Assembly (NCBI RefSeq): GCF_004010195.1
Contig: NC_057755.1
Coordinates: 11,879,660 to 11,943,659 of the forward strand
Source of the DNA: Chiloscyllium plagiosum
Taxonomy: Eukaryota
Length of the DNA stretch: 64,000 nucleotides
Direction of reading: 5' to 3'
Shown: one piece after another, positions 2,419-62,309 of the stretch
Layout: each line of letters begins with the position of its first letter
Position numbering within the stretch: the first letter of the stretch is position 1
Made by a program: the position numbers and the translations under genes
Notes under the pieces: generated by a model
Databases searched by the model: none
Told to the model about the DNA's origin: nothing
What the model saw: the letters and a program-made list of their open reading frames with translations, nothing else

Positions 2419-2530
2419 TAGGAGAAAGTGAGGACTGCAGATGCTGGATATCAGAGTCAAGAGTGTGGTGCTAGAAAAGCACAGCAGGTCAGGCAGCATC
2501 CAAGGAGCAGGAGAGTCAACGTTTCGGGCA
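2419..2530. mobile_element. Penelope-like terminal repeat relic
   Basis: ggagaaagtgaggactgcagatgctgg...acgtttcgggc matches the repeats at 14428-14630, 32836-32965 and 55769-55986. Confidence 0.65.
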
Positions 2531-2834
2531 TATGAGCTGCTTTCAGTAAGCAAACAAATTTTCACCTTCTTACGATCTCTATTATCAGCTTTTCTTTCTC
2601 CTGAGCATACCATCATCCATCCCTTTCTCCCTAACTGTCATTCTCGATCTGGGCTCCATTTTTGCCTAAGAACTCAGTCCTTTCCATCATTTCTAGAGAA
2701 GGATCACTGGACTGGAAGCGTAAACTGTTTTCTCTCCCCTGATCCTCCCAGACCTCCTGACTTTCTCCAGCAATTTCTGCTCTTGTTCATTTCTTCATGA
2801 GAACTGATGTAAAACTTTGCTTTTGTTATTGTAG

Positions 2835-5121
2835 GTATAGCAACACCCTCTCAGGAGATCGTGCACAGTGCCTTGGGCTCCCTGATTCAGGAGAGGAAGA
2901 TTTATCACACTGGTGAAGGCTATTTCATTGTCACTCCACAGACCTACTTCATTGCAGGTAGCATGGGAATGCAGAGACAGCCCTGGGTCCTCCATGAGGA
3001 AAGCGCTGCCTCACCTGATCGTGTTATATATCTTGTGAGTGTGGAGAGCAGTCAGGAGCCATTGCAGAAGGAGAGGGTCCTTCCTGATGGAGCCCCCCAT
3101 TGCAAGTCCTGTCGCTGCTTCAGCCAGCCAATGGAAAAGCAACAGGCTGACCCCCGTTTCTGCAAGAACAGCCCAGGCCAGAGGAGCTGCAAGGAGCACA
3201 AGCCTGCAGTCCAGCACAGGGCCACCTCTACAGCATTTGGGCCACGCAGGGCCAAAGAGAAAGGAATTCCCATCCGAAAATTCAGCCTCAGTCTGTTCCG
3301 ACGCAACAAAAAAAAAGACAGCCCCAAGAGAGCGTATGGGACTTTCTCAGCCCAGTTTCCCCCAGAGGAGTGGCCAGTACGTGATGAGAACAGTGTGGGG
3401 AACATTCCCCGAGACGTGGAGCACCAACTCATCAAACGTATCAATCCTGGACTGACTGTAGAGAACCTGGTCAGGCACACCTTAATGATGAAGAAACTGG
3501 GCAGAGAGAGCACTGCCCAATTTCATGGCAGTGGCTCACTGGATCAGTTGATTGGCAAGCATCATTCTGAAGAAAACCCCCAAAAGACAGCAGCTAAACT
3601 GCAACAACAGCATCGGAAGATGAGGTCCAGCAGGGAGAAGAAAAGGCTTAAGTCCAAGGGATCTCTGCAATTGACTAAGGGTCTCCCCAAGCCTGGGAAT
3701 AGTCAAAATGTTAAGGAACTGGCCAAGCACAGGAGTGAAGGAGAACAAATGCTTTTTGAGGAGCAGCCAACCCAGGCTTGCAGGAGTAGTATCCCAATCA
3801 CACAACTACACCAGAAGAGAATCGATGATCCTTTCACCAAGGGCAAACACTATTTTGCCCAAAATACCATAATCAACAATCCGAGGTTGAGGCAGAGGTC
3901 ACAGTCTGTGGATTCCTCCAGCAGGGGACAGGATGCTGTCTCCGTAAGAGAGATTGCTCCGGAGAAGTTCCACCCCAACACCGCTGCCTATCTCATCAGG
4001 CCAGCTGAAGAAGGTAACAAGGAGCAGCTACAAAGTCATGATGTTAGGACAGAGTGCAGAAATCAGGTTCTCATATACCACAATGTCCCCACTGGCTGTG
4101 AATCCCAGGATCACCTGAATAAAAATCAAACACCTGGCTCTCCCCAAAATATGCAGACTTCAAATCACACCCATAGCTGTGCCCAGCAATCTCTCCAAGA
4201 GCAGGAATCAGAGGAATTTAGCAATGTAACAAGGCCAGAGATCAGCCATGAGTATGAGGATAGTTCTGTCCCTCAATCTTTGTGCGATCGAATTTCCAAG
4301 CAGGGTCAGAACTCTACAACAGTGAAGTGTGCAAGTATGGAGAGTCTATCAAGCCTATCTCCTCTGTCTGATGCACAGCGAATGTCCCCCAACCAAGCAC
4401 AACAGTCTGAGGGTGAAACAGCCAGCCAACCAGAGACCAATGAGGAAAGGAGTGAGGCCTTTACTGATGAGGATCAGGCCTTGTATCAGAGAGAGCTGGA
4501 CGAGGATGATGCCTGCAGTTCACTGTACCTCGATGATGCTGAGCTGCCCGCACCTCTGCCTGGCCTCGACTGTGCCGATGATCCTGGGAGTGAAGGTGAG
4601 CTGTCCAATGAAAGCTGGGTTTTATCCAAGATGCTGCTGCAGGAGGAGCAAACTCCAGAAAGTGAATTTGCTGGACAGCAGGTGGAGAGCTGGTTAAACG
4701 GAACAAGTGACAGCAGCATGGGACACTCCACACCTTGCTATGGGAAGGAGACTCGCAGTCCACTTTGCAGATACCAACCAATATCACCATTGCCATATGA
4801 ACATCTGGAGAAAGAGGAACATCCAAGTGGGTGCAGAGAGCTCATCAGCAATATATTTGATTACTGTAATGTAACAGTTACTGACTCTTCTCCAGAGACT
4901 CTTCACACACTGAATAATGAAGGCATCAGAAACCCAGCCAGTCAGAACCTCTGGGCTGTGCCCAGAATGAAAACTCAGTTGATGGGAAATTTGGAGCACA
5001 ACCAATTTCCTCACCACTCCCACAATACTTCATTATTACAGACCAGCCAAGAAGAGAGTACTCATCTGGAGTTGCTGGAAAACCACAGCATTACTGGAGA
5101 TAGTGGTATTGACTCGCCAAG
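2835..5121 (+). CDS. STOX1: Storkhead-box protein 1, large internal (penultimate) coding exon
   Basis: Acceptor ttgtag at 2829-2834. Reads (G)IATPSQEIVHSALGSLIQERKIYHTGEGYFIVTPQTYFI (end of winged helix, STOX1-type YHTGEG), FSAQFPPEEWPVRDE...IPRDVEHQLIKRINP and HSITGDSGIDSPR. Donor AG|gtgagt at 5121/5122. Confidence 0.93.
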
Positions 5122-5447
5122 GTGAGTGTTCAAGGAACTGAAGGGCTCCACTGGCTCAGGGATGGTAGGGTTTTGCTGGGTTACTGATTGAAAACATCAT
5201 TAACAACAGACAATCTGGTCATTGATGTTTGCGGAAGATTTCTGTGAATAAATTGGCAACCAACTTTCTGACATTGTAGTAGTGATTATAAGAACTAATT
5301 CAGCTGATTGTGTCTGCGCCTACTGTCCAAAGAGTTTTACAGCTTAGTCCATATCCTTGTAAATTGAGATATGAAAGGGAGGAAGGGACTTAAAACAATT
5401 CCAGTTCCCAGGGAAGTACGTTAAGGAAAGTATTAGAATTAATACAC

Positions 5448-8796: not shown

Positions 8797-8944
8797 CCAA
8801 AAGAGAAAATGCTGGAAAATATCAGCAGGTTTGGCAGCATCTGTAAGGAGAGAAAAGAGCTGACCTTTCGAGTCTAACTGACCCTTTATCAAAGCTTTCT
8901 CTTTTGGTTTCAGATTCCAGCATCTGCAGTAATTTGCTTTTATC
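8797..8944. mobile_element. Short PLE-terminus-derived insertion with 13-bp TSD and a degenerate hammerhead core on the minus strand (8859-8895)
   Basis: tggatgactgact at 8784-8796 and 8945-8957; minus strand reads gct-TTGATAA-a-gggtc-agtta-gactc-GAAA-gg-TC-agc. Confidence 0.65.
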
Positions 8945-12269: not shown

Positions 12270-14750
12270 AGGCAGTGTCAGTGGGGAGGCACTTTGTAAC
12301 CAGCAACCATAATTCTATTAGTTTTAAAATAGTGATGGAAAAGGATAGACCGGATCTAAAAGTTGAAGTTCTAAACTGGAGGAAGGCCAATTTTGACGGT
12401 ATTGGCCAAGAACTTTCAAAAGTTTATTGGGGGCAGAAACTCACCGGTAAAGTGACAGCTGGAAAATGGGAAGCCTTCAAAAATTAGATAACAAGAGTCC
12501 AGAGATGGTATGTTCCCTTTAGGGTGAAAGGCAAGGGTGGCAGATGCAGGGAATGCAGAATGATGAGAGAAATTGAGATATTGGTTAAGGAAAAGAAGGA
12601 AGCATATGTCAGGTGCATACAGCAAAGATCAAGTGAGTCCTTAAATGAGTATAAAGGCAGTAGGAATATAATTAAAAGGGAAATCAGGAGGGCAAAAAGG
12701 AACCTGAGGTAGCTTTGGCAAATAGGGTTAAGGAGAATCCAAAGGGATTTTATAAATATATTAAGGACAAAAGGGTAACTAGGGAGAGAATAGGGCTCCT
12801 CAAAGATTAGCGAGGTAGCCTTTGTGTGGAACCGCAGGAGATGGGGGAGATACTAAACAATTTTGCATCAGTATTTACTGTGGAGAAGGATATGGAAGAT
12901 ATAGAATGTGGGGAAATAGCTGGTGACATCTTGAAAAATGTCCCTATTACAGAGGAGGAGCTGCTGGATGTCTTAAAACGCATAGAAGTGGATTACTCCC
13001 CAGGATCTGATCAGGTGTACCCCAGAACTCTGTGGCAAGCTAGGGAAGTGATTGCTGGGCCTCTTTATTTGTGTCATCAATAGTCACGGGTGAGGTGCCA
13101 GAAGACTGGAGAATGGCTAACGTGATGCCACTATTAAAGAAAACTGGTAAGGAAAAGCAGGGGAACTATAGACCAGTGAGCCTGATATCAGTAGTGGACA
13201 AGTTGTTGGAGGGAATCCTGAGGGACAGGATTTACATGTATTTGGAAAGGCAAGGACTGATTAGGGATAGTCAGCATGGCTTTGTGCTTGGGAAATCATG
13301 TTTCACAAACTTGATTGAATTTTTTGAAGAAGTAACAAAGAAGATTGATGAGGGCAGAGTGATGGACATGATCCATATGGACTTCAGTAAGGCATTTGAC
13401 AAGGTTCCTTATGGTAGACTGGTTAGCAAGATTAGATCTCATGGAGTACAGAGAGAACTAGCCATTTGGATACAGAACTGGCTCGAAGGTAGAAGAAGAT
13501 GGTGGTGGATGGCTGTTTTTCAGACTGGAAGCCTGTGACCAGTGATATGCCACAAGGATCAGTGCAGGGTCTACAGTTTTTCATCAATTATATAAATGAT
13601 TTGAATGTGAACACAGGAGGTATAGTTAGTAAGTTTGCAGATGACACCAAAATTGGAGGTGCAATGAACAGCGAAGAAGGTTACCTTCGAGTAAAACGAG
13701 ATCTTAATCAGATGGGCCAATCCGCTGAGGAGTAGCAGATGGACTCTAGTTTAGCTAATTGTGAGGTGCTGCAGTTTGGAAAGTTAAATCAGAGCAGGAC
13801 TTATACGCTTAATAGTAAGGTTCTGGGGAGTGTTGCTCAACAAGGAGACCTTGGAGTGCAGGCTCATAGTTCCTTGAAAGTGGAGTTGCATGTAGATAGG
13901 GTAGTGAAGAAGGTGTTTGGTATGCTCTCCTTTATTGAACAGAGCATTGAGTATAGGAGTTGGAAGGTCATATTGCTGCTGTACAGGACATTGGTTAAGC
14001 CATTTTTGGAATATTGTGTGCAATTCTGGTCTTCCTATCGGATGGAGTTGTGAAACTTGAAAGGGTTCAGAAAAGATTTAGGATGTTGCCAGTGTTGAAG
14101 GATTTGAGCTACAGAGAGAGACTGAATGGGCTAGGGCTGTTTTCCCTGGAGCATCGGGGGCTGAGGGGTGACCTTATAGAGGTTTACAAAATCATGAGGG
14201 GCATGGGTAAATAGACAAGCTCTTTTCCTTGGCGTCAGGGAGTCTAGAACTAGACGGCATAGATTTTGAGTGAGAGGGGAAAGATATAAAAGGGACCTAA
14301 GGGGTTACTTTTTCAGGCAGAGGGTGGTGCATGTATGGAATGAGCTGCCAGAGGAGGTTAGTACAATTGCAGCATTTAAAAGGCATCTGGATGGATATAT
14401 AAAGAGGATGGGTTTAGAGGGATATGGCTGAAACTTTATTGCTGGAACAGCACAGCAGGTCAGGCAGCATCCAGGGAACAGGAGATTCGACGTTTCGGGC
14501 ACAGGCCCTTCTGGCCTGTGCCCGAAACGTCGAATCTCCTGTTCCCTGGATGCTGCCTGACCTGCTGTGCTGTTCCAGCAATAAAGTTTCAGCTTTGATC
14601 TCCAGCATCTGCAGACCTCACTTTCTCCCCTTAGAGGGATATGGGCCAAGTGCTGGCAAATGGGACTAGATTAGGTTAGGATGTCTGGTCGGCATGGACT
14701 AGTTGGACCAAAGGTTCTGTTTCTGTGCTGTACATCTGTGTTACTCCATG
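12270..14750 (+). mobile_element. 5'-truncated CR1 LINE (RT and 3' UTR), frameshifted
   Basis: ORFs 12239-14214 contain [31 protein letters not shown] and LEYCVQFWS. Confidence 0.9.
14428..14630. mobile_element. Palindromic PLE-derived mini-element with 14-bp TSD
   Basis: 81-bp inverted arms 14427-14507 and 14513-14593 with loop cttct; TSD ttagagggatatgg at 14414-14427 and 14631-14644. Confidence 0.85.
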
Positions 14751-20255: not shown

Positions 20256-22200
20256 GCATGAAAACGTTGCCCCTTAAGTCTCTTTTATATTTTTCCCCTC
20301 TCACCCTAAACCTATCCCCTTTAGTTCTGGACTGCCCCAACCCAGGGAAAAGATCTTGTATATTTACCAACACAAGACCGAGGAAGTAACAGTGGGAGTA
20401 ATTGACAGAGTGTCAGTTCCAGGAATCCAGTTTGTTCTTGGGAATGATTTAGCAGGGTCCAAGGTGGGAGTGATTGTGGAAAAGCTGAAGGAAGATCAAG
20501 AAACTGATCCTTCCTATTGGAAAGTTGTTGTGAAACTTGTAAGGTTTCAGAAAAGATTTACAAGGATGTTGCCAGGGTTGGAGGATTTGAGCAATGGGAA
20601 GAGGTTGAATAGGCTGGGGCTGTTTTCACTGGCATGTCGGAGGCTGAGGGGTGACCTTATAGAGGTTTATAAAATCATGAGGGGCATGGATAGGATAAGT
20701 GGGGTGTCGGAGTCCAGAACTAGAAGGCAAAGGTTTAGGGTGAGAGGGGAAAGATATAAAAGAGTCATAGAGAGGTACAGCATGGAAACAAACTCTTCGG
20801 TCCAACCCGTTCATGCCGTCCAGATATCCCAACCCAATCTAGTCCCACCTGCCAGCACCGGCCCATATCCCTCCAAACCCTTCCTATTCTTACACCCATC
20901 CAGATGCCTTTTAAATGTTGCAGTTGTACTAGCCTCCACCACTTCCTCTGGCAGCTCATTCCATACACGCACCACCCCCTCAGTGAAAACGTTGCTCCTT
21001 AGGTCTCTTTTATACGTCTCCCCTCTCACCCTAAACCTAAACCCTCTAATTCTGGATGCTCCCACTTCAGGGAAAAGACCTTGTCTATTTATCCAATGCA
21101 TGCCCCTCATAATTTTGTAAACTTCTATAAGGTCACCCCTCAGTCTCCAATGCTCCAGGGAAACCAGCCCTTGCCTTTTCAACCTCTCCCTATAGCTCAA
21201 ATCCTCCAATCCTGCAACATGCTCGTAAATGTTTTTTTGAACCCTTTCAAGTCTCACAACATCCTTCTGATAGGAAGGAGACCAGAATTGCATGCAATAT
21301 TCCACAAGTGGCCAAACCAATGCCTTGCACGGCCTCAACATGACCTCCCAACTCTTGTACTCAGTAATCTGACCAATAATGGAAAGCATACCAAACACCA
21401 CCTCCGCTATTCCCATCTACCTGCGATTCTACTTTCAAGGAGCTATGAACATGCACTCCAAGGTCTCTTTATTCAGCAACACTCCCTAGGACCTTACCAT
21501 TAAGTGTATAAGTCCTGCTAAGATTTGCTCTCCCAAAATGCAGCACCTCGCATTTATCTAAATTAAACTCCATCTGCCACTCCTCAGCCCATTGGCCCAT
21601 CTGGTCAAGATTCAGTTATAATTTGAGGTAACCTTCGTTGTCCACTACGCCTCCAATTTTGGCGTCATCTGCAAACTTACTAATTGTACCTCTTATGCTC
21701 ACATCCAAATCATTTACATAAATGACAAAAAGTAGTGGACTCAGCACCGATCCTTATGGCACTCCACTGGTCACAGGCCTCCAGTCTGAAAAACAACCCT
21801 CCACCACAACCCTCTGTCTTTTACCTTTGAGCCAGTTGTGTATCCAAATGGTTAGTTCTCCCTGTATTCTGTGAGACCTAACCTTGTTAACCAGTCTCCA
21901 ATAGGAAATCTTATTGAATGCTTTACTGAAGTCCATATAAATCACATCTACTGCTTTGCCCTCATCAATCCTCTTTGTTACTTCGTCAAAAACCTCAAGC
22001 AAGTTTGTGAGACATGATTTCCCATGCAAAAAGCCATGTTGACTATCCCTAATCAGTCCTTGCCTTTCCAAATACATCTACATCCTGTCCCTCAGGATTC
22101 CCTCCAACAACTTGCCCACCACCGATGTCAGGCTCACTGGTCTATAGTTCCCTGGCTTGTCCTTGCCATCTTTCTTTAATAGTGGCACCACATTAACCAC
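20256..22200. mobile_element. Cluster of CR1 fragments inside the Gypsy pol (minus 20256-20357; plus 20508-20762; minus 20763-22200)
   Basis: ORFs 20811-21416 and 21754-22077 (-) carry CR1 RT motifs DFSKAFNK and LVEYCMQFWSP. Confidence 0.85.
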
Positions 22201-24997: not shown

Positions 24998-25152
24998 TGG
25001 AGAAAGTGAGGATTGCAGATGTTGGAGGTCAGAGTTGAGAGTGTGATGCTGGGAAAGTGCTGGAATACTAGTGAACTGCTTATGCCAGAAACGTCAATTC
25101 TCCTGCTCTTATGCTGCCTGACCTGCTTTGCTTTCCTAGCACCACACTCTCA
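24998..25152. mobile_element. Degenerate inverted PLE terminal relic
   Basis: ggagaaagtgagg...gagagtgtgatgctgg and gcaccacactctc inverted arms; gaaacgtc present. Confidence 0.6.
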
Positions 25153-27159: not shown

Positions 27160-27318
27160 GAAAGCAGGAGACAACAGCTTCGCTTCACTTGGAGGTCGCC
27201 ACTGATGATGTTACCTAGCCAGGTAATGAAACGTCTGGATATCAAACCTACAGCTCAGCGAGCAAACCTACATCCTAAACCTCAACCTGAGCTACAAACC
27301 TTCACAAACCCTGCGAAT
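27160..27318 (+). mobile_element. PLE terminal repeat fragment
   Basis: cagctcagcgagcaaacctacatcc matches the end of the PLE at ~46083-46107. Confidence 0.75.
27199..27238 (+). ncRNA. Minimal type I hammerhead ribozyme, intact core
   Basis: cca-CTGATGA-t-gttacct-agcc-aggtaat-GAAA-cg-TC-tgg: stem I cca/tgg, 7-bp stem II, palindromic ACGT stem III; predicted cleavage after C27235. Confidence 0.8.
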
Positions 27319-29062: not shown

Positions 29063-29940
29063 AATTTGGAGATACCGGTGTTGGACTGGGGTGTACAAAG
29101 TTAAAAATCACACAACACCAGGTACTCATGTGACTCAGCCAATGTTGTCTATCTTATACGTTGCAGGCCAGGATGCCCGGAGGCATGGTACATTGGGGAA
29201 ACCGAGCAAAGGCTACGACAACGGATGAATGGGCACCGCACAACAATCAACAGACAGGAGGGTTCCCTCCCAGTTGGGGAACACTTCAGTGGTCCAGGAC
29301 ATTCAGGCTCGGACCTTCGGGTGACCATCCTCCAAGGTGGACTTCGGGACAGGCAGCAGAGGAAAGTGGCCGAGCAGAGGCTGATAGCAAAGTTCGGTAA
29401 CCATAGGGAGGGCCTCAACCGGGACTTTGGGTTCATGCCACATTACAGGTGATCACCATTGCACTACACACACACAGATATTCCTACACACACATTCTCA
29501 CATACACACGGACACAGGTACACACAGACGCGCACACAGACACCCACACTCACACATGCACCCCCTCACAGACTTAAGACACTCTGCACTCAAAAAGGAG
29601 CTGGCAGACAAAGGGATTGTAGATAGTAGGTCAGGAAAGAAAAATAACTTAGGTGGAAATGGGGACTGTGAGTGGGTGAAAATGGGTTGGCTGTGCTAAA
29701 AGCAAAAGGTTTTGTGATTTACACATGAAAGAAGTGAAACTATCACTGTATTCTAACAGATGAAAGGCTTAACAGACAATCAATTTTCAATGTATAATTT
29801 CAGTTCCATCACACTGCAAATTTTTGCTATAAATTCTGTGTTACGATCGAGCCCTCCACTATCACCTGATGAAGGAGCATCGCTCCGAAAGCTAGTGTGC
29901 TTCCAATTAAACCTGTTGGACTATAACCTGGTGTTGTGTC
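29063..29940 (+). mobile_element. 5'-truncated Penelope-like element (GIY-YIG endonuclease and terminal repeat) with inverted 5' terminal piece
   Basis: Reads YSCDSANVVYLIRC...WYIGETEQRLRQRMNGHR (GIY-YIG); acacaacaccagg at ~29110 is inverted at cctggtgttgtgt ~29927. Confidence 0.85.
29863..29897 (+). ncRNA. Minimal type I hammerhead ribozyme, intact core
   Basis: cac-CTGATGA-a-ggagc-atc-gctcc-GAAA-gc-TA-gtg; predicted cleavage after A29894. Confidence 0.8.
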
Positions 29941-32835: not shown

Positions 32836-33812
32836 GAGAAAGTGAGGACTACAGATGCTGGAGATCAAAGTCAAAGAGAGTGATGCTGGAAAAGCACAGC
32901 CAGTCAGACAGTTCTGAGGAGTAGGAGAATCAACTTTTCAAGCAGAAGCTCTTCATCAGGAATGAGACTTGTAGTCCAACGGGTTTGAGAGATAAATGGG
33001 AGGAGGGTGGGACTGAAGGATGGTAGCTGGCAATGTGATAGGGAGATGAAGGTGGGGGGGTGAAAGCAATAGGTCAGAGAGGAGGGTGGAGCAGATAGGT
33101 GGGAAGGAAGATGAACAGGTAGGACAGGTCATGAGGGCAGTGGCAAATTGGAAAGTTGGCTCTGGATAAGGTGGGTGGAAGGAAATGAAGAAACTAGTGA
33201 AATCCATATTAATCCCGCATGTTGGAGGGTCCCAATGCGGAAGATGAGGTGTTCTTCCTCCAGGCATCAGGTGGTTAGGGTTTGGGGGTGGAGGAGGCCC
33301 AGGACATGTTTGTCCTTGGCGGAGTGGGAGGGGCAGTTAAAACGCTCAGCCACAGGCAGTGGGTTGTTTAGTGCGTGTGTCCCAGAGATGTTCTCTGAAA
33401 TGCTCTGCAAGTTGGTATCTTGTCTCCCCAATGAAGAGGAAACCACATCGGGAGCAATGGATACAGTAGATGATGTGTGAAAGTGCAAGGAAATCTGTGT
33501 CAGATATGGAAGGCTCCTTTGCTCTGTCAGAGATTAACCTGTACTTCCACACACTTCATCTACTGTGTCCGTTGCTCCCGATGTCCCACCTGTCCATCTT
33601 CCTTAACACCTATCTGCTCTATCCGTCTCTCCAACCAATCACCTTCACCCCACCTTTGTCTAACTATCGTATTTCCAGGTACCTTCCCCCCAAACCTACC
33701 CCCTCCCATTTTACTCTCAGCCCCCTTGGCTCACAAGGCTCATTCCTGATGAAGGGCTTATGCTTGAAACATCGATTCTCCTGCTCCTCGGATGTTGTCT
33801 GACTGGCTTTTC
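32836..33812. mobile_element. Inverted PLE fragment (GIY-YIG plus two terminal repeats), 11-bp TSD
   Basis: TSD attaggagtag at 32825-32835 and 33813-33823; minus strand HIIYCIHCSRCGFLFIGETRYQLAEHFREH; hammerhead cores at 32928-32963 (-) and 33743-33776 (+). Confidence 0.85.
33743..33776 (+). ncRNA. Minimal hammerhead-like core, partly decayed
   Basis: ttc-CTGATGA-a-gggc-ttat-gctt-GAAA-ca-TC-gat. Confidence 0.6.
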
Positions 33813-43702: not shown

Positions 43703-46636
43703 CCAGGATGATTAGATTTGTCAAGCCCTGGGCCCTGGAGGGGGTCTCCCAAGTTAATACAGGTATATATACAATGCTCCCGTTCCTTTGTTTGGGAGCT
43801 TTGCGCCGAGCATAGCTGTTCTGTATTTTGTGCATTTTTTTTTGGTTTGTTTTTTGCTTTTCTTTTTTTTGGTGTTGCTTTGCATAGTGTTAGGGTTTGC
43901 TTTATATTATAGGGTAGGTTAGTAGTTAGTAGATAGTAGTTGTATTGTAATTTGTGTTTTTTTTCTTTTTATTATACTGATATTTGTTATTGTTTTTTTT
44001 TCCATTAATTTTATATGCTTGTAAAGTTAAAAAAAATTGCTAATAAATATAGTTACAAAAATAAAGAAGGCACACGGTGTGTTAGGTTTCATTCAGAGAG
44101 GAATTGAGTTCCGGAGGCGCAATATCATGCTGCCACTATACAAAACGCTAGTGCGGCCACACTTGGAATATGGAGTACAGTTCTGGTCGCCATATTTCGG
44201 GAAGGATGTGGAAGCATTGGAAAAGGTGCAGAGGAGATTTACCAGGATGTTGCCTGGTCTGGAGGGAAGGTCTTATGAGAAAAGGCTGGGAGACTTCGGG
44301 CTGTTCTCATTGGAAAGAAGGCTAAGAGAGGATTTGATAGAGACATATGAGATGATCAGAGGATTAGATAGGGTAGATAGTGAAAGTCTTTTTCCTAGGA
44401 TGATGGCGTCAACTTGTACGAGGGGCCATAACTACAAATTGAGGGGTGATAGATTTAAAACAGATGTCAGAGGCAGGTTCTTTACACAAAGAGTGGTAAG
44501 GGTGTGGAATGCCCTACCTGCCAAAGTAGTCAACTCAGCCACATTAGGGAGATTTAAACAATCCTTAGATAAGCACATGAATGATGATGGGATAGTGTAG
44601 GGGAGGGCGAGCTGAGAATAGTTCACAGGTCAGCGCAACATTGAGGGCCGAAGGGCCTGTTCTGCGCTGTATTGTTCTATGTTCTATGTTCTAAGACTCA
44701 CGCCACTCCATCCACTCCACCCAAGAATTCCTGAAGACCATCAAAGACACCAAAATATAAGAAGATGGAGTAATTGTGTCTTTTGACGTAACAGCCCTAT
44801 TCACATTCATCAATATCAACCTGGCCAAGGAAACACTGACTACATTATTAGAAGAACCAAAGGCACATACACCAAACACCACCAATTGATCAGCAAGGAC
44901 AATGTCTTGAAGCTAGTGGACCTATGCCTTACCACCCACTTCACCTTCAACAACAAAACCTACAGACAAACCAATGGAGCACCAATGGAATCTCCGATAT
45001 CAGGGTTCTTAGCAGACGCAGTAATGCAGAGACTCAAATAACCAGCTCTGCCAACCCTCCAACCCAAACTTTGGATTCCCTATGTGGACGATACCTTTGT
45101 CATCACTAAATGAAACAATTTAGAGGAAACCCTCAAGACCATTAATGGCACAAAATTCACTAAAGAGGATGAAAACAACAGACTGCCATTCCTAGATGTT
45201 GCAGTAGAGCAAACAGCCAATGGGGAACTTCAAACCAGTGTTTACAGGAAAACAACACATACTGACCAAATACAGAAGCAATCATCCCAACACCCACAAA
45301 CAGAGCTGCATCAGAACCTTATTTCAATGAGCCACCACTCACTGCAGCTCAGAGGAAAATCACCTACAGAGTGTATTCAAAAAGAACAGGTACCCAATGA
45401 ACACAGTCCACTGATTCCTCAAGAACAAACCCAAATAAGCAGAAAAAATGCACCCAGAAACTCTAGCCACTCTCCTCTACATCAAAGACATCTTGGAAAT
45501 GACTGCCAGACTACTCTGACCTCTTGGCACCATGGTAGCGCACAAACCCACCAACACATAAAAATAGCAGCTAATGAATTTGAAAGACCCTATACAGATA
45601 ACAAGCAAAACTAATGTCATTTACAAAATACCATACAAGAAATGTAACAAACACTACATTGGACCAACATGCAGAAAACTAGCCTCCAGGATACATGAAC
45701 ATCAACTAGCCACAAAAATACATAACCCATTCTCACCAGTATCCTTACATATAGATGAGGAAGGATACCATTTCTACTGGGACAACACATCCATCCTAGG
45801 ACAAGCCAAACAGAGACATGCACGAGAATTCCTAGAAGCATGGCATTCCAACGGGAACTCTATCAACAAACACATTGACTTGGATCCCATTTGCCATCCC
45901 TGAGAAAAAGAACAGGAAATGACATCACCACAGGAAATGATGCCATCACAGGGAATGACATCACCAACCCAAGAAAACCTAAACACATAAATAGAAAGCA
46001 GGTCATATCAGCAGTGCTTCATCTGGTAGCTCATTGATGATGTTACCTAGAAATTTGGTGAAATGTCTGAAAACGAACCTTCCAGCTCAGTGAGCAAACC
46101 TACATCCATCAGAGGGTAATAGTGGAAGGATACTTGTTGGACTGGAGGCCTGTGATTAGTGGAGTGCCTCAGGGGTCGGTGAGGGGCCCATTACTGTTTG
46201 TTATCGAAATCAATGATTTGGATGAGAGTGTTCAAGGCATGATTATGTTTGCAGATGACACTTTAAAATAAGCGGTATCGTGGACAGTGAGGAAGGTTCT
46301 CAGACCTCGATCAACTGGGGAAGTGAGCTGGGAAATGGCAAATGGAATTTCATATAGATAAGTGTGATGGCTTGCATTTTAGAAAGTCAAATCAAGGTAG
46401 GAGTTTCATGGTGAATGGTAGGGCCTTAAGGAGTGCAGTGGAACAGAGAGACCTTGGAGTTCAGGTAACGGTTCTCTGAAAGTGGAGTCACAGGTAGACA
46501 GGGCAGGGAAGAAGGCTTTTGGCACACTGGCCTTCATCAGCCAGGGCATTGAGTATAAAAGTTGGGAAGTTATGTTGCAGTTATGTAGGATATTGGTAAG
46601 GCTGCACTTGGAGTTCAGTTTTGGTCACTTTTTTTT

Positions 46637-46905
46637 AGATTAGATTACTTTAGTGTGGAAACAGGCCCTTCAGCCCAAGTCCACACCGACCCTCCGAAGA
46701 GCAACCCACCCAGACCAATTCCTCTACATTTACGCCTCCACCTAACACTACAGGCAATTTAGCATAGGCAATTTAGCATGGCCAATTCACCTAACCTGCA
46801 CATTTTTGGACTGTGGGAGGAAACCAGAGCACCCGGAGGAAACCCACGCAAACATGGGGAGAATGTGCAAACTCCACACAGTTTGCCCGAGGTGGGAATT
46901 GACTT
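46637..46905 (-). mobile_element. HE1-like SINE (head truncated)
   Basis: (gatta)n tail and reverse-complement V-SINE body. Confidence 0.8.
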
Positions 46906-46946
46906 TGTTACAGGAAGGATTTTATTAAACTGGAATGAGTGCAGAT

Positions 46947-47270
46947 GAAGCATGGTGGCATGGTGGCTGAATGGTTAGCACTGCTGCCTCACAGCACCAG
47001 GAACCTGGGTTCAATTGCAGCTTCGGGTGACTGTCTGTGTGGAACTTGCACAATTTCCCCATGTCTATGTGGTATTTCCTCCCAGTATCCAAATGTGTGC
47101 AGGTTAAGTGAGTTAGCCATACTAAACAGCCCATAATCTTCAGGGATGTGTAAGTAACATTTGCTTGTCAGGGGTAAATATAGGGGAATGGGTCTGGGTA
47201 GGTTACTCTTCGGAGGGTCGGTGGGCACTTTTTCAACCAAATGCCCATTTCCACACTGTAGGGAATCTAC
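46947..47270 (+). mobile_element. HE1-like SINE
   Basis: ggtggcatggtggctgaatggttagcactgctgcctcacag head. Confidence 0.8.
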
Positions 47271-48765: not shown

Positions 48766-48864
48766 CCATATTGTGAAGGTGCAAGTGTTGCACTGGGGTG
48801 GACAAAGTTAAAAATCGCACAACACCATTTTGGAATATAACTTGGTGTTTGTGTGATTTGTAAC
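48766..48864. mobile_element. Tiny hairpin PLE-terminus insertion with 9-bp TSD
   Basis: aatagtcac at 48757-48765 and 48865-48873; gttaaaaatcgcacaacacca and tggtgtttgtgtgatttgtaac are inverted. Confidence 0.65.
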
Positions 48865-49116
48865 AATAGTCACTTTCTAAACATAGACTGGGTCTGCCAA
48901 AGTGCTAAGGGATCAGATGGGAAGGAATTTGTTAAGTGTGTATAAGACTCTTTCTTATTCAGTATGTGGATGTACCTATGAGAGATGGAGCAAAACTTGA
49001 CTTTCTCTTGGGAAATAAGGCAGGGCAGGTGACTGAGGTGTCTTTGCACTTTGGGGCAAAGTTATCATAATTCTATTAGTTTTAAAATAAGGTCAGAAGT
49101 CACATGGAAGTGACAC

Positions 49117-49154
49117 TTTACCTGATGAAGGAGCAGCACTCCGAAAGCTTGTGA
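49117..49154 (+). ncRNA. Minimal hammerhead ribozyme in a short PLE terminal insertion (~49090-49241)
   Basis: ttac-CTGATGA-a-ggag-cagca-ctcc-GAAA-gc-TT-gtga, enclosed by the inverted repeat aaggtcagaagtcacatg / catgtgacttctgacctt. Confidence 0.7.
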
Positions 49155-50282
49155 CCTCGAATAAACCTGTTGGATTATAAGCTGGCATCATGTGACTTCT
49201 GACCTTGTCTACCCAAGTCTAACACCAGTATCTCCACATTGTAGTTATAAAATAGAAATGGATAAAGATAGACCTGATCTAAAATTTAAAGTTCTAACTC
49301 TAAGGAAGGTCAATTTTGACAGTATTTAGGAAGAACTTTCAAAAGTTGATGGGGGCAGGGGGTGTGGATATTTGCAGATAAAGGGATGGCTGGAAAGTGA
49401 GAAGCTTTTAAAAATGAGATAATGAGAGTCTAGGGACTATATATCAAGCGTAAGATGGGCAGATGTAGGAAACGCTGGATAACTCGAGGAATTGAGGTCC
49501 TGGTCAAAAAAAAGAAGCAAGCATATGTGAGGTATAGACAGCAGGGATTGTGTGAATCCTGCAAGGAGTATAAGGGTAGTAGGAGTATATTAGGAAGGAA
49601 TTCACAAGGGCAAAAAGGGGACATGAGATAGTTTTGGCAAATAGGGTTAAGGAGAATCCAAAGGACTTCTACAAATACATTAAGAAGAAAAGAAAAACTA
49701 GGGAGACAATGAGGCCTCTTAAATGTCACCAAGGCTGACTATGTGTGGAATCACAGGCATTGGTTGAAATATTAATGAGTATTTTGCTGTGAGAGGGATA
49801 CGGAAGCTGGAGAGCTCGGGGAAATAAATTGCAACATTTTGAAAAGAGTCTATATTACAGAGAAGAAGTGTTGGATGTCTTAAAAAGATGGACAAATCTC
49901 TGGGACCAGATCAGGTGTACCCTAGAACTTAATGGGAAACGAGGGAAGTGATTACTGGGACCTTTGCTAGGATATTTGTATCATCGATGGCCACAGGTGG
50001 GGCACCAGAAGACTGCAGGTTGGTTAACGTGGTGTCACTCTTTAAGAAAGGTGGTAAGGAAAAGCCAGAGAACTATAAATCGGTGAGCCCGACATCTATG
50101 GTGGGCAGGTTGTTGAAAGGGATACCAAGGGACAGGGTTTACATTTATTTGGAAAGGCAACAACTGATTAGGGATAGTCAACATTGTTGTGTGTATGGGA
50201 AATCGTGTCTCACTAACTTTATTGAATTTTTTGAAGACATGATGAAGAGGATTAATGAAGGTAGAGCGATGGACATCATCTA

Positions 50283-51742
50283 CATGACGAGAACGAGGGT
50301 AGGTCCGATCAAGGAGAGTAGTGGGAGGCTGTGTATTGAGTCGGAATAGATAGGAGAGGTCTTGAATGAGTACTTTTCTTCAGTATTTACGAATGAGAGG
50401 AACCATATTGTTGAAGAGGAGAGTGTGAAACGGACTGGTAATCTAGAGGAAATACATGTTAGGAAGGAAGATGTGTTGGACATTTTGAACAACTTGAGGA
50501 TAGACAAGTCCCCCAGGCCTGATGGGATATATCCTAGGATTATGTGGGAAGCAAGAGAGGAAATTGCAGTACCGTTGGCAATGATCTTTTCATCTTCACT
50601 GTCAACGGGGGTGGTACCAGGGACTGGAGAGTGGCGAATGTTGTACCCCTGTTCAAAAAAGGGAATAGGGATAACCCCAGGAATTACAGGCCAGTTAGTC
50701 TTACTTCGGTGATAGGTAAAGTAATGGAAAGGGTACTGAGGGATAGGATTTACGAGTATCTGGAAAGACACTGCTTGATTAGGGACAGCCAGCACGGATT
50801 TGTGAAGGGCAGGTCTTGCCTTACAAGTCTTATTGAATTCTTCGAGGAGGTGACCAAGCATGTGGATGAAGGTAGAGCAGTGGATGTAGTGTCAGACTTG
50901 GTCATTGCACGGTGAACCATAGGGCCAAGTTCTTTAGCATGGTGAGGCGGGTAAACTTTTGGAATGATATGAGGTGCTGATTGCTTCCATAGATGAAGAG
51001 ATATTTCCGCCTCCCCTTCTGGACCAATGACATGGGCCAAATTCTGCACAGTTCATTTGGTTCCAATTAAATAAATTTTAAAATTTCAAGAATTTTATCC
51101 TGGTCTGTTCGGACATAAGCAAGAGTATTGTGGTCCCCAGAGTTTTTGGTATTAATATCAAGTGACCACCACTGTGGTTCAGTGGATACATACTGCTGAC
51201 GTTCGTATGAATCAGAATCAAGCTGGACACCATCAGGGGAACATGCAAGTTTTACTTGAAAGGAAGACAGCAAATCTCGTCCCATCAAGTTGCATGATAT
51301 TTTGTTTGTAATTACAAAACGATGAGACAGGGAATAACCTTGAAAATAAACAGCAACAGGTTGAGAAAGTGGATATTTTTTGCTCTCTCTATGTAGACCA
51401 GACAAACTCTTTGTTTGTATTGAAATTGGCAAGTCTTTGTCAGATCTTACAGAAGACATTGAAGCTCCTGTGTCAATTAAAAAAGGATACCATTTGTTGT
51501 TAACTTTGAGTACGACTATAGGTTCCTGCTTAAAAGACGCGACACGTCTACCCAGAGAGTGGTGGGGGCATAGAATGCGCTGTCTTTGGGAGTGGCAGAG
51601 TCAGAATCATTGGCGAACTTTAAGTGGCAATTGGATAGGTACATGGATGGGTGCTTAAGCTAGGACAAATGTTCGGCACAACATCGTGGGCCGAAGGGCC
51701 TGTTCTGTGCTGTATTGTTCTATGTTCTATGTTCTATGTTCT
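50283..51742 (+). mobile_element. Young CR1 whose central RT segment is replaced by a retroviral fragment
   Basis: CR1 at 50283-50892 and 51549-51742 with (ttctatg)n tail; same family as 1-530 and 52900-54325. Confidence 0.85.
50893..51548 (-). pseudogene. Retroviral pol fragment: aspartic protease plus putative 2H-phosphoesterase-like domain
   Basis: Minus strand KQEPIVVLKVNNKWYPFLIDTGASMS (DTG 51466-51474) and NLMGRDLL (GRD 51274-51282), then GDHNTLAY, VIGPEG and SAPHII...AKELGPMV. Confidence 0.8.
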
Positions 51743-54325: not shown

Positions 54326-55768
54326 AATCATAAGGGACATGGATAGGGTGAATAGTCAAGGTCTTTTCCCTAGGATGGGGAAGTCTAAATCTAGAGGGCA
54401 TTAATCTAAGGTGAGTAGGTAAAGATTTAATCAGGACCTAAGGGGCAACTTTTTCATGCAGAAACTGGTGCTTGTATTGAATGACCAATCAGAGGAAGTG
54501 CTGGAGGTTTGTACAATTACAACATTTAAAAGGCATTTGGGTGGGTACATGAATAGGTTTAGAGAGATAAGGGCCAAATGCTGTCAAATGGGACTAGAAT
54601 AATTTAGGATACCTGGCTGGCATGGACGAGTTGGACCAAAGAGTCTTTCTTCGTGCTGTACATTCTATTGATTCTAACTGCTGACAGTGACTAGTTTCTT
54701 TGTTAAGCTATTACTTGTCCTGCACTCATTAAGATTTTAACCTGGAGTGCTGCTTCTAACTGTTGTTCCTTGCATGAATTCATGCACACTAACCCTCCGA
54801 AAAGCATCCCACCCAGACCCAAACCCCTACCCTACCCCTGTAACCCTGCATCTAACAATCATATAATTGATTAGTTTTGTATGACATAAGTTTATTTGAC
54901 TTCCTATGTAACACCAATTGTAAACACTCCAGAATGATGTCTAACTTCATCGTTCATGTGACTAACAACTAACTTGGGAGCAAATGAAGATTTTGGACTA
55001 AAGGGGCAGCCCCCTCATGGACATGAAATTTACTGAGTGATAGATTAATAATTAACAGATGTTTTTAAGACTTGAGACAGGTTCACAGTGGAGTTTCCCA
55101 GGGACTGATTTTGGGAGCTCTGATCTTCCTGCTATAATTATTGATCTAAACTTGGTGTGCCAGGCACAATGTCTAAGTTTGCAACTGACACTGAACTTGG
55201 AAATATTGTGAACTGTGAGGAAAATAGTCAAAAATTTCAAAAGGAAGTAGTCACGTTGGTGAACTAGGAGAAAATCGCAGATGCAATTTAATTCAGAGAA
55301 TTGTGAAGTGATTGTTTTGGTAGGAACAGCATGGAGTGACCATATACAATAAAAGATACAATTGTAAAGCAGATTCAGCAGCAGAGGAACATGATTGTAC
55401 ATAAAATCACTGAATGTTAAGGACAAGTTGACAGAGCAATGATTGGAGCATATTGGGCTTAATTGATAAGGATGTATACTACTTTCTTGCCCTCAAAATC
55501 TGAACCTTGTATAATTGGTTTGACCTCCAATCAAAGTATTGCATCCACTCTGGCTGCCATACTTTTGGAATGATATCAAGGCATTGAAGAGAGTACAAAA
55601 CATATTCATGACATTGATTCATGATTGAGGAACTTCAGTTATTGATTGGAGATGTGACAGAGTCCTATAAATTATGAGAAGTCTGGAAAGGGAGAAATTC
55701 TTCCTATTGGTGAAAGATCATTAATGAGAAGACACAGTATTAAGGTAACAGGCAAAAGTGAAACAAAG

Positions 55769-55986
55769 ATGGAAATGTGTTGCTGGAAAAGCGCAGCAGG
55801 TCAGGCAGCATCTAGGGAACAGGAGAATCGACGTTTCGGGCACTAGCCCTTCTTCAGTTCCTGAAGAAGGGCTAATGCCCGAAACGTCGATTCTCCTGTT
55901 CCCTAGATGCTGCCTGACCTGCTGCGCTTTTCCAGCAACACATTTCCATCTCTGATCTCCAGCATCTGCAGACCTCACTTTCTCCT
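55769..55986. mobile_element. Palindromic PLE-derived mini-element with hammerhead cores on both strands, 15-bp TSD
   Basis: 91-bp arms 55767-55857 and 55861-55951 (one mismatch), loop ttc; TSD aaaagtgaaacaaag at 55754-55768 and 55987-56001. Confidence 0.88.
55858..55891 (+). ncRNA. Minimal hammerhead ribozyme core (mirror core on the minus strand at ~55827-55860)
   Basis: ttc-CTGAAGA-a-gggc-taat-gccc-GAAA-cg-TC-gat; stem I is weak (2 bp). Confidence 0.7.
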
Positions 55987-56566
55987 AAAAGTGAAACAAA
56001 GGAAAATGTTATTTGATGTAACAATTTGTTAATGTTTGGAATGCATTCCCTGAAAATCAAGTGCAGGAAGGTTTAAACAAAGCATTTGAAAGAGAATGGG
56101 ATCATTGTCAGAAGAGGAAAAATGCAGAGAGAAAGAAGCAGAATTTGGGGATTGGCAGTAAATAAATTGTTCTTTTGCAAGGCGAACATAGACACAATGG
56201 CTTTCATTTGCACTGTCATTATCTGGTGCTGAGATGTCTCCTGGCTATTGTGAGAAATTTGGATATGCTGAATAAAGTTGTCTCACAGTTATTTTTGCTT
56301 TAACACAGTATTAACACAGTTACAGTACATTCATTTAATGTTTTAATGTAATGTTTCCTGCAGACTTCTGGTGCTGGCTGCATGCACTCAAGATCATTGC
56401 ACCATGCTTACACTTGCACACTCAGTCCTCCTGGCCTTCCTCCTGTTCTTGCCCCAGTCCCTGCCCTCAGTCTTTCTAAATCCCCTGCCCAGGTTCCCAC
56501 TCCCACCCTCCATTTTTACTTTTCTGGTATCCCCAGTCTCCATTTCTCTGTTGAACATGTGCAATA

Positions 56567-58052: not shown

Positions 58053-59199
58053 GAGAGAGAGAAAAATGAGCTGTATAGCTAATAGAAAATTTTACCCTTT
58101 GTGATTTGGTTTGAATGCACATTTGTTTGTTGGTGATTGAATGTTTGTGCTTTGTTCCCTGGAGCTTCAGATCCGGGACTGTTTTGAATCTGATTTCTAT
58201 TATGGAAATTTAACATGATTTCTTTGAAGGTTAAGGATTTTACAGTGATTATGAAATAAGATGTTAACTCCTGTTCTTTTTCCAGGTCATGACTGCCTTA
58301 CTATCAGTTTCTAACTAATCTCTTTTATCCTTACATAAAAGCCAACCTATTCGATTTCAAATCAGCTTAATACAGAGGAAAACAACATCATAACCTTTTT
58401 TTTGTGTTTTAGACTCATTTGTTGCCACTTAATTTTAAGATTGATGTGTTTCATTGGTGATTATGATGTGCCAGATGTAGCTTTATTCAGAAAATCCCCT
58501 CCCTCAATGACAATTGAAGTTTCAGTTTTAAAAAAATCCTATGGTTAAAATCTGTGACCTTAGATTCGGCCATTATTCATGCATTAGAAGTTTTTTTAAA
58601 CTTGAATAGACAAATCCTTTTAAGGCAGCTCCGGTTATTTCATGAACTATAGCATTGTAATTGAGCAATGACTGGTCAGGACTACTTAAGGAAACTAGTT
58701 TTGGATTTAAATTAAAGATTAAAACTGGGTAATTATAGTGAATTTCAAAGTTGGGAACTGTATGCATTTTGCATTTTAAATATTAAATACTGAATAAATC
58801 AATTTATAATATATAAATATATTTACAAGTAAGATTCCAAAATGTATAGTTAGGAACAGGCTTTAAAGTTAGACAAGCATAAATTGATAAATTGGTTAAA
58901 TAAGGTTAAAATGAAAATAAAGGCAAGGAGATCAACTACAGAATGATGCAACAAGAAGGATAACGCAGAAGAGTACAGTTTTTAAAATGTTTTAGTCACT
59001 TGTTGCGTTTCCACCCTGAATTACAGATGATTATTTTATTTATATAATATATAATTAATAATTAATATTTATAATAAATCAGTTGTATTAACCTGAATCA
59101 ATATTAATTGGCAGGATTGCTTCACACTCTCTCAGTGACCTGTCATATTGATTCATAGCAAATTTAAAACATGACAGTATTAATTGATTGTTAATTAAA

Positions 59200-61000
59200 G
59201 AATGGAAAGCTACATTACTGGCCGGAGCATGTGCGGGCAATGGCAGCAACAGCCTTATTGGTATAGGAGAGTCGGAAACTTACTTTTGGGGGAGCCTTAA
59301 TAGTCAGCACCCCACACCGGTATGGACCATACTAAATCAGAAAGCAGGACGATGGCTCACAGACTATAGGATTTTGAAATATGAGGCAACTTTAATAGAG
59401 AAGGATAACCTTGTGTTAGTCACAGACAGTTGCTTAAATCTAGCTGCATTCCTGTGGCGTGGAGAGGGGGAGGCCCCTGGTAATCCAGAACCCTGGTAAT
59501 CCAGCCTTGATATTATTGAATATCAGACGAAAGTGCGGATGGGCTTAAGGGATATCCCGCTGCATGCGGGAGCTCGGTTGTTTATCGACGGGTCCTCCCA
59601 GATGATTGAGGGTAAAAGGCACAATGGATATGCTGTAGTAGACAGGATAGAGGGAAGCGTTATCGAGACTGAAAGACTGCCTAATGTGGTCAGCCCAAAT
59701 TTGTGAACTCTGTGCCCAAGAAAGAGCTCTCAGAGCCTTAGAAGACAAGGAAGGAACAGTGTACACAGACTCCAAATATGCATTTGTAGTGGTACACACC
59801 TTCGGAAAATTTGGTAAGAAAGAGGACTAATAAGTAGTCGAGGAAAAGAACTAGCACATGAGGAATTGATAGAACGAGTACTAGAATCCCTGTTACTCCC
59901 GAGGGAAATAGCGATAGTTTATATAAATGGACATCAAAAGGGGAATGATCCGGAAGTAAGAGGAAATAGACTGGCCGATGAGGTAGCTAAAGAAGCGGCG
60001 CTGAATCCACAAGGAGCCGCAATATACTCCCTAATACCTGTAATTCCGGATCCTCAGGGTACCCCGATGTTTACTGCAAAGGAGGAAAAGGAACTAAAAG
60101 ACTTAAGGGTCGCAAAGACAGTGGTTGGGTGCTGGACATTACCCGACGGGAGGGAGATGTTGAATAAAATAATGATGCGAGAGATTATGGCTGTCCTACA
60201 TCAGGGGAGTCACTGGGGAATGCAAGTAATGTGTGATTTAGTCTTAAGGAAATATAGTTACAAAGGGATGTATATGGTAGCCAAACAGATATGTGAGGGA
60301 TGTATAAAATGCAGGAAAGTAAACAAGAAGGTGCTAAGGAAACAAGTCCCAGGAGGGAGAGAACCTGGGCTAAGACCATTCCACAGCATCCAGGTAGATT
60401 ATACCAAATTACCCAGAGTGGGAAGACTGAGATAAATGTTGGTAATAGTTGATCATTTATCTGGATGGGTGCAGGCATATTGTCTGGCCACTGCAACCAC
60501 AAGTGGGGTGTCCAAGATAATACTTGAACACATAGTTCCTAGATACGGGATAGTGGAGTGTATAGATTCAAATCAGGGAACTCTCTTTACTTCCAAGGTA
60601 CTCCAGGGATCAATGAATGGGTTGGGGATCTCCTGGGAGTTCCACACCCCTTGGCACCCACCCTCATCAGGAAAGATTGAGAGAATGAGCCAGATACTCA
60701 AGAGGCAGTTATCTAAATTAATAATAGAAACCAGATTCCCTTGGACTACGTGATTACCTATAGCCCTCTTGTGAGTACAGACGGCCCCAAGGAAAGATAT
60801 GGGGCTGTCCCCTTATGAGATATTGTTTGGCCTGCCCTACTTGGGAACAAATGGGGAATTGCCAATCCCAGAAACTAGAGATTTGTTCTTAAAGAAGTAT
60901 ATACAGGGCTTGTCCTCCTCTTTGTCTTTCCTCAGGAAACAAGGTTTATTGGTGCAGACTCCGTCCTTGAATTCACCGTTCATCCCAACCGGCCGGAAGT
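59200..61000 (+). pseudogene. ERV pol remnant: tether, RNase H and integrase (PR and RT absent)
   Basis: LFIDGSS, YTDSKYAF, GHQKG..GNRLADEVAKEAA; HQGSH..CEGCIKC, QVDY, DSNQG, HPPSSGKIERM. Confidence 0.88.
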
Positions 61001-61009
61001 GAGACAGGA

Positions 61010-61660
61010 AGGGCATGAAATGTATGATAGCCCTGTACCAGGATGAGACTGCATGGAATGATAGGAACTGTACCTCCCTATCTCTGATGTTCCCTCCCTT
61101 TGAGAAGAAAGACTTAAAAGCCGCAGTCGGAAATTACACGTCGTGTGTATGTAGACAAGGTACAAATCGGTCCAGAGACTTGGGGAAGCTGAAATTATGT
61201 ATAGAAATTGAGAATGTCACCGAAATGGACAAGGGAGGGAACTATTCAGCACTGAAGGTTCCCCGAGCGGATCTGTGGTGGTACTGTGGAGGCAAAATAT
61301 TGAGACCCACCCTGCCTCCAGATTGGAGAGGGATATGTGCAATTGTACAATAAGCAATCCCATTCACCTTGGCATTTGAAAAGGAGAAGATAGCAACAAA
61401 AAGGGGGAGGAGTAGAAAATCATTATTAGACTCCTCTTTTATCTAGACTCTATAGGAGTTCCTAGAGGGTTGCCGGATGAGTACAAGGCTCGTAACCAGA
61501 TTGCAGCAGGTTTTGAATCGGCTCTATTCTGGTGGGTAACAGTCAACAAGAATGTGGACTGGATAAACTATATTTTCTATAATCAGCAAAGATTCATCAA
61601 TTACACTAGGAATGCAGTCAAAGGCATAGCAGAACAGCTTGGGGCAACATATGAGAGAAA
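61010..61660 (+). pseudogene. ERV env remnant (SU end, cleavage site, TM N-terminus)
   Basis: DLWWYCGGKILRPTLPPDWRGICAIVQ; basic RSRK site; IGVPRGLPDEYKARNQIAAGFES...NVDWINYIFYNQQRFINYT. Confidence 0.82.
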
Positions 61661-62309
61661 TGCAGAAAACAATAATTATTAAAAAAAAGGGGGGGATTGT
61701 GAGAGGTGCTTGCGAAGGTTGTTGTTTCTGCAAAAATCACAAGGCTGAGTAATGAGGGGGAGTTGTATGTTAAGCTAGATATGCATGAACAAGTAGCTGC
61801 ATCTTGCTTCTGCAAAAATTGCAAGGCGGAATCACGAGGGTGTAGACCAAGAAATAACTAACCGAAAAGGGAGGTGGTCGACTGGTAGGGACAGATGTAT
61901 TGACATGACAGTTGCAATTGTCATGCACATAGGGAGTTAGTATGAACAAGATAACCAAATAAGACCCAGTGTTGTGTCAGCCAAAGTAATAAGACCCAGC
62001 TATCGGGGGTGGTTGCACACCAACAACAGGCCACAGACAGATGTGGTAAGCCAATTAGATTAGCAGCTGCACAGAGCAATACACCTATCAGATATGAAGT
62101 AAAAGGGGAGTGCTGAGAGACTCAACTGAACTGTATAAATTGTAATGTAACCGCCTGACCGAGGTGCCTACGTTGTGGTCACCCGGGCTTGCAAGAATGT
62201 ACAAATAAAGACTGCTTCAGAATTTGACTCAGACTGAAATTATTGAACAGTGAGCTTCGTTTCTCACAGTAGAGGTTACCTTATTTGTTAATGAATTATC
62301 CCGAAGAGT

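Follow-up and report, generated by a model that had tools for sequence, protein, structure and literature searches.

What is the hairpin-forming insert at 55754-56001 of our 64-kb window (the whole stretch of DNA that was analysed), and could its back-to-back hammerhead cores belong to a small element that spreads through the genome? The original prediction offered two readings side by side, namely a propagating unit of retrozyme or MITE type and a recurrent abortive product of Penelope-like elements (PLEs). We find that the insert is an ordinary example of the published PLE insertion pattern, a young, dead-on-arrival mini-insertion and not a propagating retrozyme or MITE. Very probably, the last ~125 nt of a PLE are present in it as two copies placed head to head, which likely arrived in one insertion event and are likely incapable of moving again.

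The predicted outline, a hairpin of ~220 bp with a 15-bp target-site duplication (TSD), proved accurate. Indeed, an identical direct repeat (15 of 15 bp, 55754-55768 and 55987-56001) bounds a 218-bp insert, which is made up of two 89-bp arms, a 3-nt loop (TTC) and a 37-nt tail on one side only:

55754 to 55768, no strand: left copy of the TSD, the last 2 nt of which also match the register of the inverted arm (microhomology)
55769 to 55857, minus strand: inverted arm of 89 bp, a 5'-truncated PLE 3' end that stops 37 nt before the full end is reached (short class of RT start)
55858 to 55860, plus strand: loop TTC, native letters found upstream of the core and retained by the main arm alone, at a blunt junction
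55861 to 55949, plus strand: main arm of 89 bp, a PLE 3' end (pseudo-LTR region)
55950 to 55986, plus strand: one-sided tail of 37 nt, unpaired, reaching the full 3' end of the element
55987 to 56001, no strand: right copy of the TSD, an exact 15-bp repeat

The arms had been described as near-perfect and 91 bp long. They differ at a single position pair (55843/55875), but inside the repeats they measure 89 bp, the figure of 91 counting 2 nt that are shared by the left repeat and the tail; an inverted-repeat search extends them to 94 nt at the cost of a second mismatch. Moreover, the hairpin is not the whole insert, since the unpaired tail at 55950-55986 was absent from the original prediction. 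The loop was taken as native by comparison with the native context in a copy at 33 kb. No ORF and no direct pLTR pair is present in the insert (~125 + 89 nt), and no host exon was recognised near the element by eye among 120 listed frames. The hairpin is real and chance is excluded: ~3e-6 such TSDs would be expected over 41x41 placements, the DNA fold has a z of -29 with 0 of 200 shuffles equally stable, and 200 Markov resamples of 1.8 kb yielded no exact inverted repeat longer than 18 nt.

To which kind of element do the arms belong? A BLAST search of the insert against the window returned related pieces at 2.4, 8.3, 8.8, 14.4, 25.0, 32.8 and 33.7 kb, and the following features of the 33-kb region bear on the origin of the arm:

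32836 to 33811, minus strand: old, long inverted copy, with its junction inside the endonuclease coding region, a TSD of 11-15 bp and an overhang of 59 nt
33213 to 33477, minus strand: relic of a GIY-YIG endonuclease, with a broken frame; 67-75% identity (E 1e-27) to P0001, a protein with RT and GIY-YIG

In this copy the hammerhead and the 3' end are located ~230 nt downstream of the GIY-YIG relic. P0001 itself carries a YIDD RT motif as well as a GIY-YIG domain at its C terminus, and because the 33-kb copy has the same sequence as the arm after a GIY-YIG frame related to P0001, the arm is, as judged from sequence comparison, the 3' terminal region of an endonuclease-bearing (GIY-YIG/RT) PLE. 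Pfam matches to GIY-YIG (E 0.054 and 0.0046) fall below the curated cut-off, and the one protein relative that a search gave for the relic bears the label Chiloscyllium punctatum, which suggests a shark-like host. Membership of the Neptune clade is likely; of the Neptune linker CX2-5CxxC (a zinc finger between RT and EN), P0001 shows the CxxC only, upstream of GIY-YIG, and the window relic begins past the linker. Altogether, an RT/GIY-YIG parent, a truncated inverted copy, a one-sided tail, a TSD and a hammerhead motif in the terminal repeat, all features of endonuclease-bearing (EN+) PLE insertions, are present.

The architecture had also been said to recur in five relics, at 2419, 8797, 25000, 48766 and 49090. 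Four of these do combine an inverted arm with a tail (48766 and 49090 partly by eye), but the one at 2419 has no inverted arm, and the best comparators, 14428-14630 and 32836-33811, had not been listed. Besides the 33-kb copy, the window holds:

2419 to 2550, minus strand: simple 5'-truncated copy of the same family as the insert, with no inverted arm
8797 to 8944, plus strand: inverted copy of a related subfamily; overlap 12 bp, spacer 87, tail 37 nt, TSD 13 bp
14428 to 14630, plus strand: sister hairpin with perfect 80-bp arms, a 5-nt loop in the helix II region, a 38-nt tail and a 14-bp TSD
24999 to 25152, minus strand: older inverted copy; overlap 22 bp, spacer 73, tail 36 nt, decayed TSD of ~14 bp
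48766 to 48864, minus strand: inverted stub of another PLE family; overlap ~17, spacer 26, tail ~41 nt, TSD 9 bp, register partly by eye
49090 to 49241, plus strand: inverted stub of that same other family; overlap ~17-18, spacer 82, tail 36 nt, TSD 13 bp (1 mismatch), values adjusted by eye

The stub at 49090 contains one minimal hammerhead core, the copy at 8797 has its hammerhead-like part on the inverted arm only, and the sister hairpin, which folds back inside the helix II region, has no CUGA core on either strand. This sister hairpin sits in the 3' end of another repeat, which we take to be CR1-like. A TSD search at 2419, 27.2 kb and 29.9 kb gave nothing convincing.

Expressed as arm overlap, spacer and tail, the insert reads 89/3/37 and the 14428 copy 80/5/38. 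The tail measures 36-41 nt in six of the seven inverted copies (37, 38, 36, 37, ~41 and 36), which represent at least two families; the outlier is the 32836 copy, with a long, decayed overlap and an overhang of 59. TSDs of the inverted copies span 9-15 bp, and the inverted arms end in the same alignment column, within one position, in four of the five aligned copies. The junction is distinct in all seven when centres are compared within the 64-kb window, where no second copy with the centre of the 55754-56001 hairpin was found. A shared palindrome centre had been set beforehand as the test of propagation, and the seven differing junctions speak against it; they bear out the other reading, that of a recurrent abortive PLE product. 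The two hairpins illustrate the point at finer scale. They show 12 differences over 80 shared positions, and at 11 of the 12 both arms of each hairpin carry the letter of their own locus; therefore the two do not descend from one hairpin, and each was symmetrised from its own template.

How might such inserts form? By analogy with a lizard PLE we lean, on balance, towards a mechanism of two nicks and two start sites. [quoted passage not shown] At our locus, a PLE RT-endonuclease acting in trans would nick both target strands, 15 nt apart, and each nick would prime reverse transcription on uncleaved element RNA. One cDNA would begin at the full-end start site and the other ~37 nt upstream, both would terminate prematurely, in this insert at the core's 5' edge, and the two cDNA ends would be joined bluntly by host repair. 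Several observations fit this scheme. The tails of 36-41 nt and the constant end column of the inverted arms match the two RT start sites of PMC11167929, and none of the 11 truncation points in the window lies at the predicted cut (55889), as expected if the template RNA is uncleaved. The 59-nt overhang of the 33-kb copy counts against a constant tail.

Another route to the same structure, possible in our view though less likely, is that one cDNA (or an antisense RNA) folds back, self-primes and copies its own arm, with the copy then joining the second nick. In favour of this route, the two youngest copies have near-identical arms and loops of just 3 and 5 nt; the near-symmetric stops of these copies (3 and 5 nt apart) fit fold-back and self-priming equally well as two start sites, and self-priming has been proposed for palindromes at inverted junctions (PMC3846280). 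However, neither junction has 3' self-complementarity beyond the arms, and a fixed offset of 36-38 nt requires a second defined start site in any case. Relative to the main arm, the upstream reach of the inverted arm is 3 nt shorter at 55754-56001 and longer at 14428, 8797 and 25000. At 8797 and 25000 upstream sequence is found on the inverted arm only, reaching beyond the main arm, so that a simple fold-back of the main cDNA cannot give these copies. The single arm mismatch (55843/55875) falls in hammerhead loop II, at the site of a common A>G family variant in public contigs, and could reflect two templates rather than a later mutation.

Seven of the 11 truncation points fall within 55858-55876, a stretch of ~20 nt in the core's 5' half (by eye, in a small sample). 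A further, improbable reading is that PLE reverse transcription has a programmed stop and joining point in the fold of the uncleaved hammerhead. Were it true, PLEs would routinely write near-perfect hairpins that bury their own ribozyme and seed dsRNA directed at the family, a built-in brake, and the very many stubs of the genome would amount to a natural library for the formation of PLE inverted junctions.

Could the hairpin instead be transcribed and re-inserted whole by PLE proteins, as a non-autonomous family of retrozyme or MITE type? Four of 24 public runs (three DNA, one RNA) were aligned to one arm, the tail and the right flank. In the three DNA runs 66,108, 54,454 and 47,976 contigs fell on this stretch, with a summed depth of millions on the arm versus 5-127 on the flank, a depth that is not a copy number. 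The joint of the hairpin centre, 55858 to 55861, was absent from the best 15 of 50 joints in all three DNA runs. Opposite-strand joints among these best 15 of 50 were scattered, with depths of at most 233, and connected 55858-69 to 55905-16 or to 55950-56, and 55945 to 55985. A family with a fixed centre would be expected to head the list of joints. The missing centre joint is supporting rather than decisive evidence, because the counts for run X2 are too low and hairpin junctions may be lost in assembly. Two sites, 55942-45 and 55986-87, are followed by loose ends that carry long AT-rich flanks; they define two classes of 3' end ~40 nt apart, although part of those at 55942-55950 may be alignment breaks because the region varies between subfamilies. 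In run X2 one contig passes from the tail into the flank. Head-to-tail joints from 55986 to 55858 also occur in the three DNA runs (28, 8 and 8 contigs) and point to tandem family copies elsewhere in the genome, and a single row of run X5 joins ~55945 (plus 6 letters) to 55889, the first base past the predicted hammerhead cut.

The RNA run, one raw poly(A) single-cell run of which ~2% was read, placed 3,316 reads on the arm, from both strands, and none on the unique flank. In that portion 998 reads cross the ends of the stretch and none supports any opposite-strand joint among the best 15 of 50. Reads do not pile up at any beginning or end, and a run of this type is uninformative on cleavage. 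We discarded A-to-I editing as a candidate, since the excess of A>G and T>C in RNA over DNA is matched by a rise of C>T, A>C, A>T and T>G at the listed sites.

A propagating family does have points in its favour: both RT start sites are kept and are likely a cis signal, the insert is young with a clean TSD, and non-autonomous PLE derivatives exist (PMC8557442; bioRxiv 10.64898/2026.07.22.740005). We nevertheless consider it very unlikely. The centre is not repeated in 64 kb and its joint is missing from the best 15 of 50 in three DNA runs, the RNA run has no reads on the opposite-strand joints among those best 15 of 50, no promoter-bearing or tandem unit is seen, and an 89-bp duplex would presumably be a poor RT template. 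The suggested retrozyme- or MITE-like unit thus finds no footing at this locus, where the copies stand head-to-head, the inverted repeat falls short of one terminus and the best 15 of 50 joints include no high-depth centre joint.

The hammerhead letters at the centre of the hairpin call for separate consideration. Both strands carry the conserved core, helix II and the palindromic helix III remnant typical of minimal hammerheads, in the order CUGAAGA-A-GGGC-(4 nt)-GCCC-GAAA-CG-UC:

55861 to 55888, plus strand: minimal type I hammerhead motif, with CUGAAGA at 55861-67, an extra A, GAAA at 55881-84 and a palindromic ACGU; predicted cut after 55888
55869-72 paired with 55877-80, plus strand: helix II of the plus core, 4 bp
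55830 to 55857, minus strand: minimal hammerhead core letters, with no helix I (A-G and A-A beside the core)

Helix I of the plus core consists of 2 bp (C-G and U-A) followed by a U-U mismatch and a G-U wobble, and the minus core lacks this helix because the junction replaced its upstream letters. The claim of hammerheads on both strands therefore stands for the core letters, but not for a complete minus-strand motif, and the two cores are never sense in one RNA: any transcript would contain one sense core, made after its antisense arm. An Rfam scan of the window gave three matches at E<=1, none of them a hammerhead and all below gathering scores. The RNA of the hairpin folds at -185 or -195 kcal/mol with a modelled probability below 0.01 that the core is unpaired, which upholds the idea that long dsRNA sequesters the ribozyme, and forcing the core open would cost 41-45 kcal/mol in the hairpin versus 6 in the right half alone. 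From these models we predict that the hairpin has no ribozyme activity.

A functional two-strand ribozyme device, whether a double hammerhead or a bidirectional cleaver, is accordingly hard to credit. Core letters are intact on either strand, yet cores on opposite strands cannot form a dimer in cis, with no second sense copy in any transcript of 55754-56001. Minimal PLE hammerheads do not cleave as monomers and cleave at a low level as dimers (PMC4209133). Furthermore, helix I is missing from the minus strand, both cores lie buried in duplex, and the sister hairpin is altogether coreless. The hammerhead letters are very probably passengers: whichever strand is transcribed, the antisense arm comes first and the sense core is predicted to be buried in the 89-bp duplex, and RNA of the hairpin would likely end as a dsRNA substrate rather than as a ribozyme. 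Should the locus be transcribed, this outcome is plausible, since inverted Penelope copies yield siRNA in Drosophila (PMC3681739).

The insertion was predicted to be young, and two findings agree. One is the arm mismatch of 1 in 89; the other comes from a related species, in which a 1,626-nt contig meets the reference only from 55988 and has 972 other letters before that point. The orthologous site thus appears empty, as seen from the right side of the contig. This contig shows 11 differences and 2 gap letters in 290 against the reference, and because the orthologous site looks empty the insertion is likely younger than a split of ~4% divergence. Perfect palindromes can be sequencing artefacts and the fold-back junction was not seen in aligned contigs, but a fold-back chimera of the assembly is scarcely believable. 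The TSD is exact, the one-sided tail has the length known from published insertions, the arms differ at one position, older copies share the build, in a related species an apparently empty site starts at the TSD, and 93% of sampled words of the 2-kb region occur in public runs (which may be the source sample).

The rest of the window is that of a vertebrate genome, with a Storkhead-box exon, RT relics and retrovirus-like fragments. For example, a 770-codon open frame at 2813-5125 has a Storkhead-box domain at its start and is likely a large exon of the STOX family. At least two further PLE families have left minimal hammerhead cores, at 27202-27240, 29866-29900 and 49122-49155, and the 29866 core has a GIY-YIG relic upstream of it (29120-29413). 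A more distant PLE lineage is represented at 45000-45800 by a broken relic of RT and GIY-YIG, 28-33% identical to P0001, in which Pfam recognised no PLE family; four of the eight window ORFs examined had no Pfam match. Broken retrovirus-like pieces with stops and frameshifts lie at 51067-51600 (minus) and 59100-61700 (plus), their frames resembling a protease, RNase H, an integrase zinc-finger and an envelope-like protein. Opposed older repeat pairs at 20275-21279 and 46677-47230 give imperfect inverted repeats of 60-126 nt.

As a single locus the insert matters little, and its value as a marker and as mechanistic evidence is modest. Because the orthologous site of a related species appears to lack it, it is a presence/absence marker. 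With a tail that stays constant across families, the two-start-site result, obtained on a lizard Poseidon element, is extended to another PLE lineage, and a census of PLE stubs could test how inverted junctions form.

How, finally, does the insert compare with known systems? MITEs are short, non-coding, hairpin-forming and TSD-flanked, with terminal inverted repeats at both ends and many uniform copies. The insert shares the first four of these properties, but it has a 37-nt unpaired tail at one end and a retroelement origin, TSDs vary from 9 to 15 bp, and the window copies are unequal in length and centre (all seven differ). Non-LTR retrozymes are closer, being likewise short, non-coding, PLE-derived and related to type I hammerheads. 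In PMC7229834 and bioRxiv 10.64898/2026.07.22.740005, retrozymes are described as tandems of head-to-tail units that carry canonical hammerheads and release circular RNA, whereas the insert is a head-to-head single unit with a minimal motif and one sense core per transcript; it has no tandem units, and no canonical type I hammerhead was found (Rfam gave none at E<=1 anywhere in the window).

With the minimal hammerheads of metazoan PLEs (PMC4209133) the motif shares CUGANGA, an extra nucleotide before helix II, a G-C first pair, GAAA, the palindromic helix III remnant and UH. Helix II is shorter, at 4 bp against 7-8 bp in Schistosoma, as is helix I, at 2 bp (plus) or none (minus) against 4-5 bp. 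The same source already describes minimal hammerhead pairs on opposite strands and ascribes them to truncated PLEs, at spacings of ~100-700 bp compared with the 3 nt between cores here.

It is the insertions of EN+ PLEs that the insert resembles most. PMC8557442 gives an adjacent inverted, 5'-truncated copy with a one-sided tail of 30-40 bp as typical of PLEs; PMC3846280 likewise reports an inverted pLTR plus tail, and the inverted truncated copy with tail is listed in a curation guide (PMC8969392). How these inverted junctions form is still called undefined in PMC8557442. A literature search, outside of which most subscription papers fell, returned no description of such PLE stubs in sharks. 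Differences from the published cases are a TSD of 15 bp versus 8-10 bp in the rotifer examples, an insert of only ~125 + 89 nt that lacks an ORF as well as a direct pLTR pair, a near-symmetric junction at the edge of the hammerhead core, and a vertebrate host that is probably shark-like. Shared with them (PMC8557442, PMC3846280 and PMC11167929) are the head-to-head truncated copy, the one-sided tail, the TSD and the palindromic inverted junction, together with an AT-rich target, a hammerhead motif in the terminal repeat and, in the longer copy, a contiguous GIY-YIG ORF.
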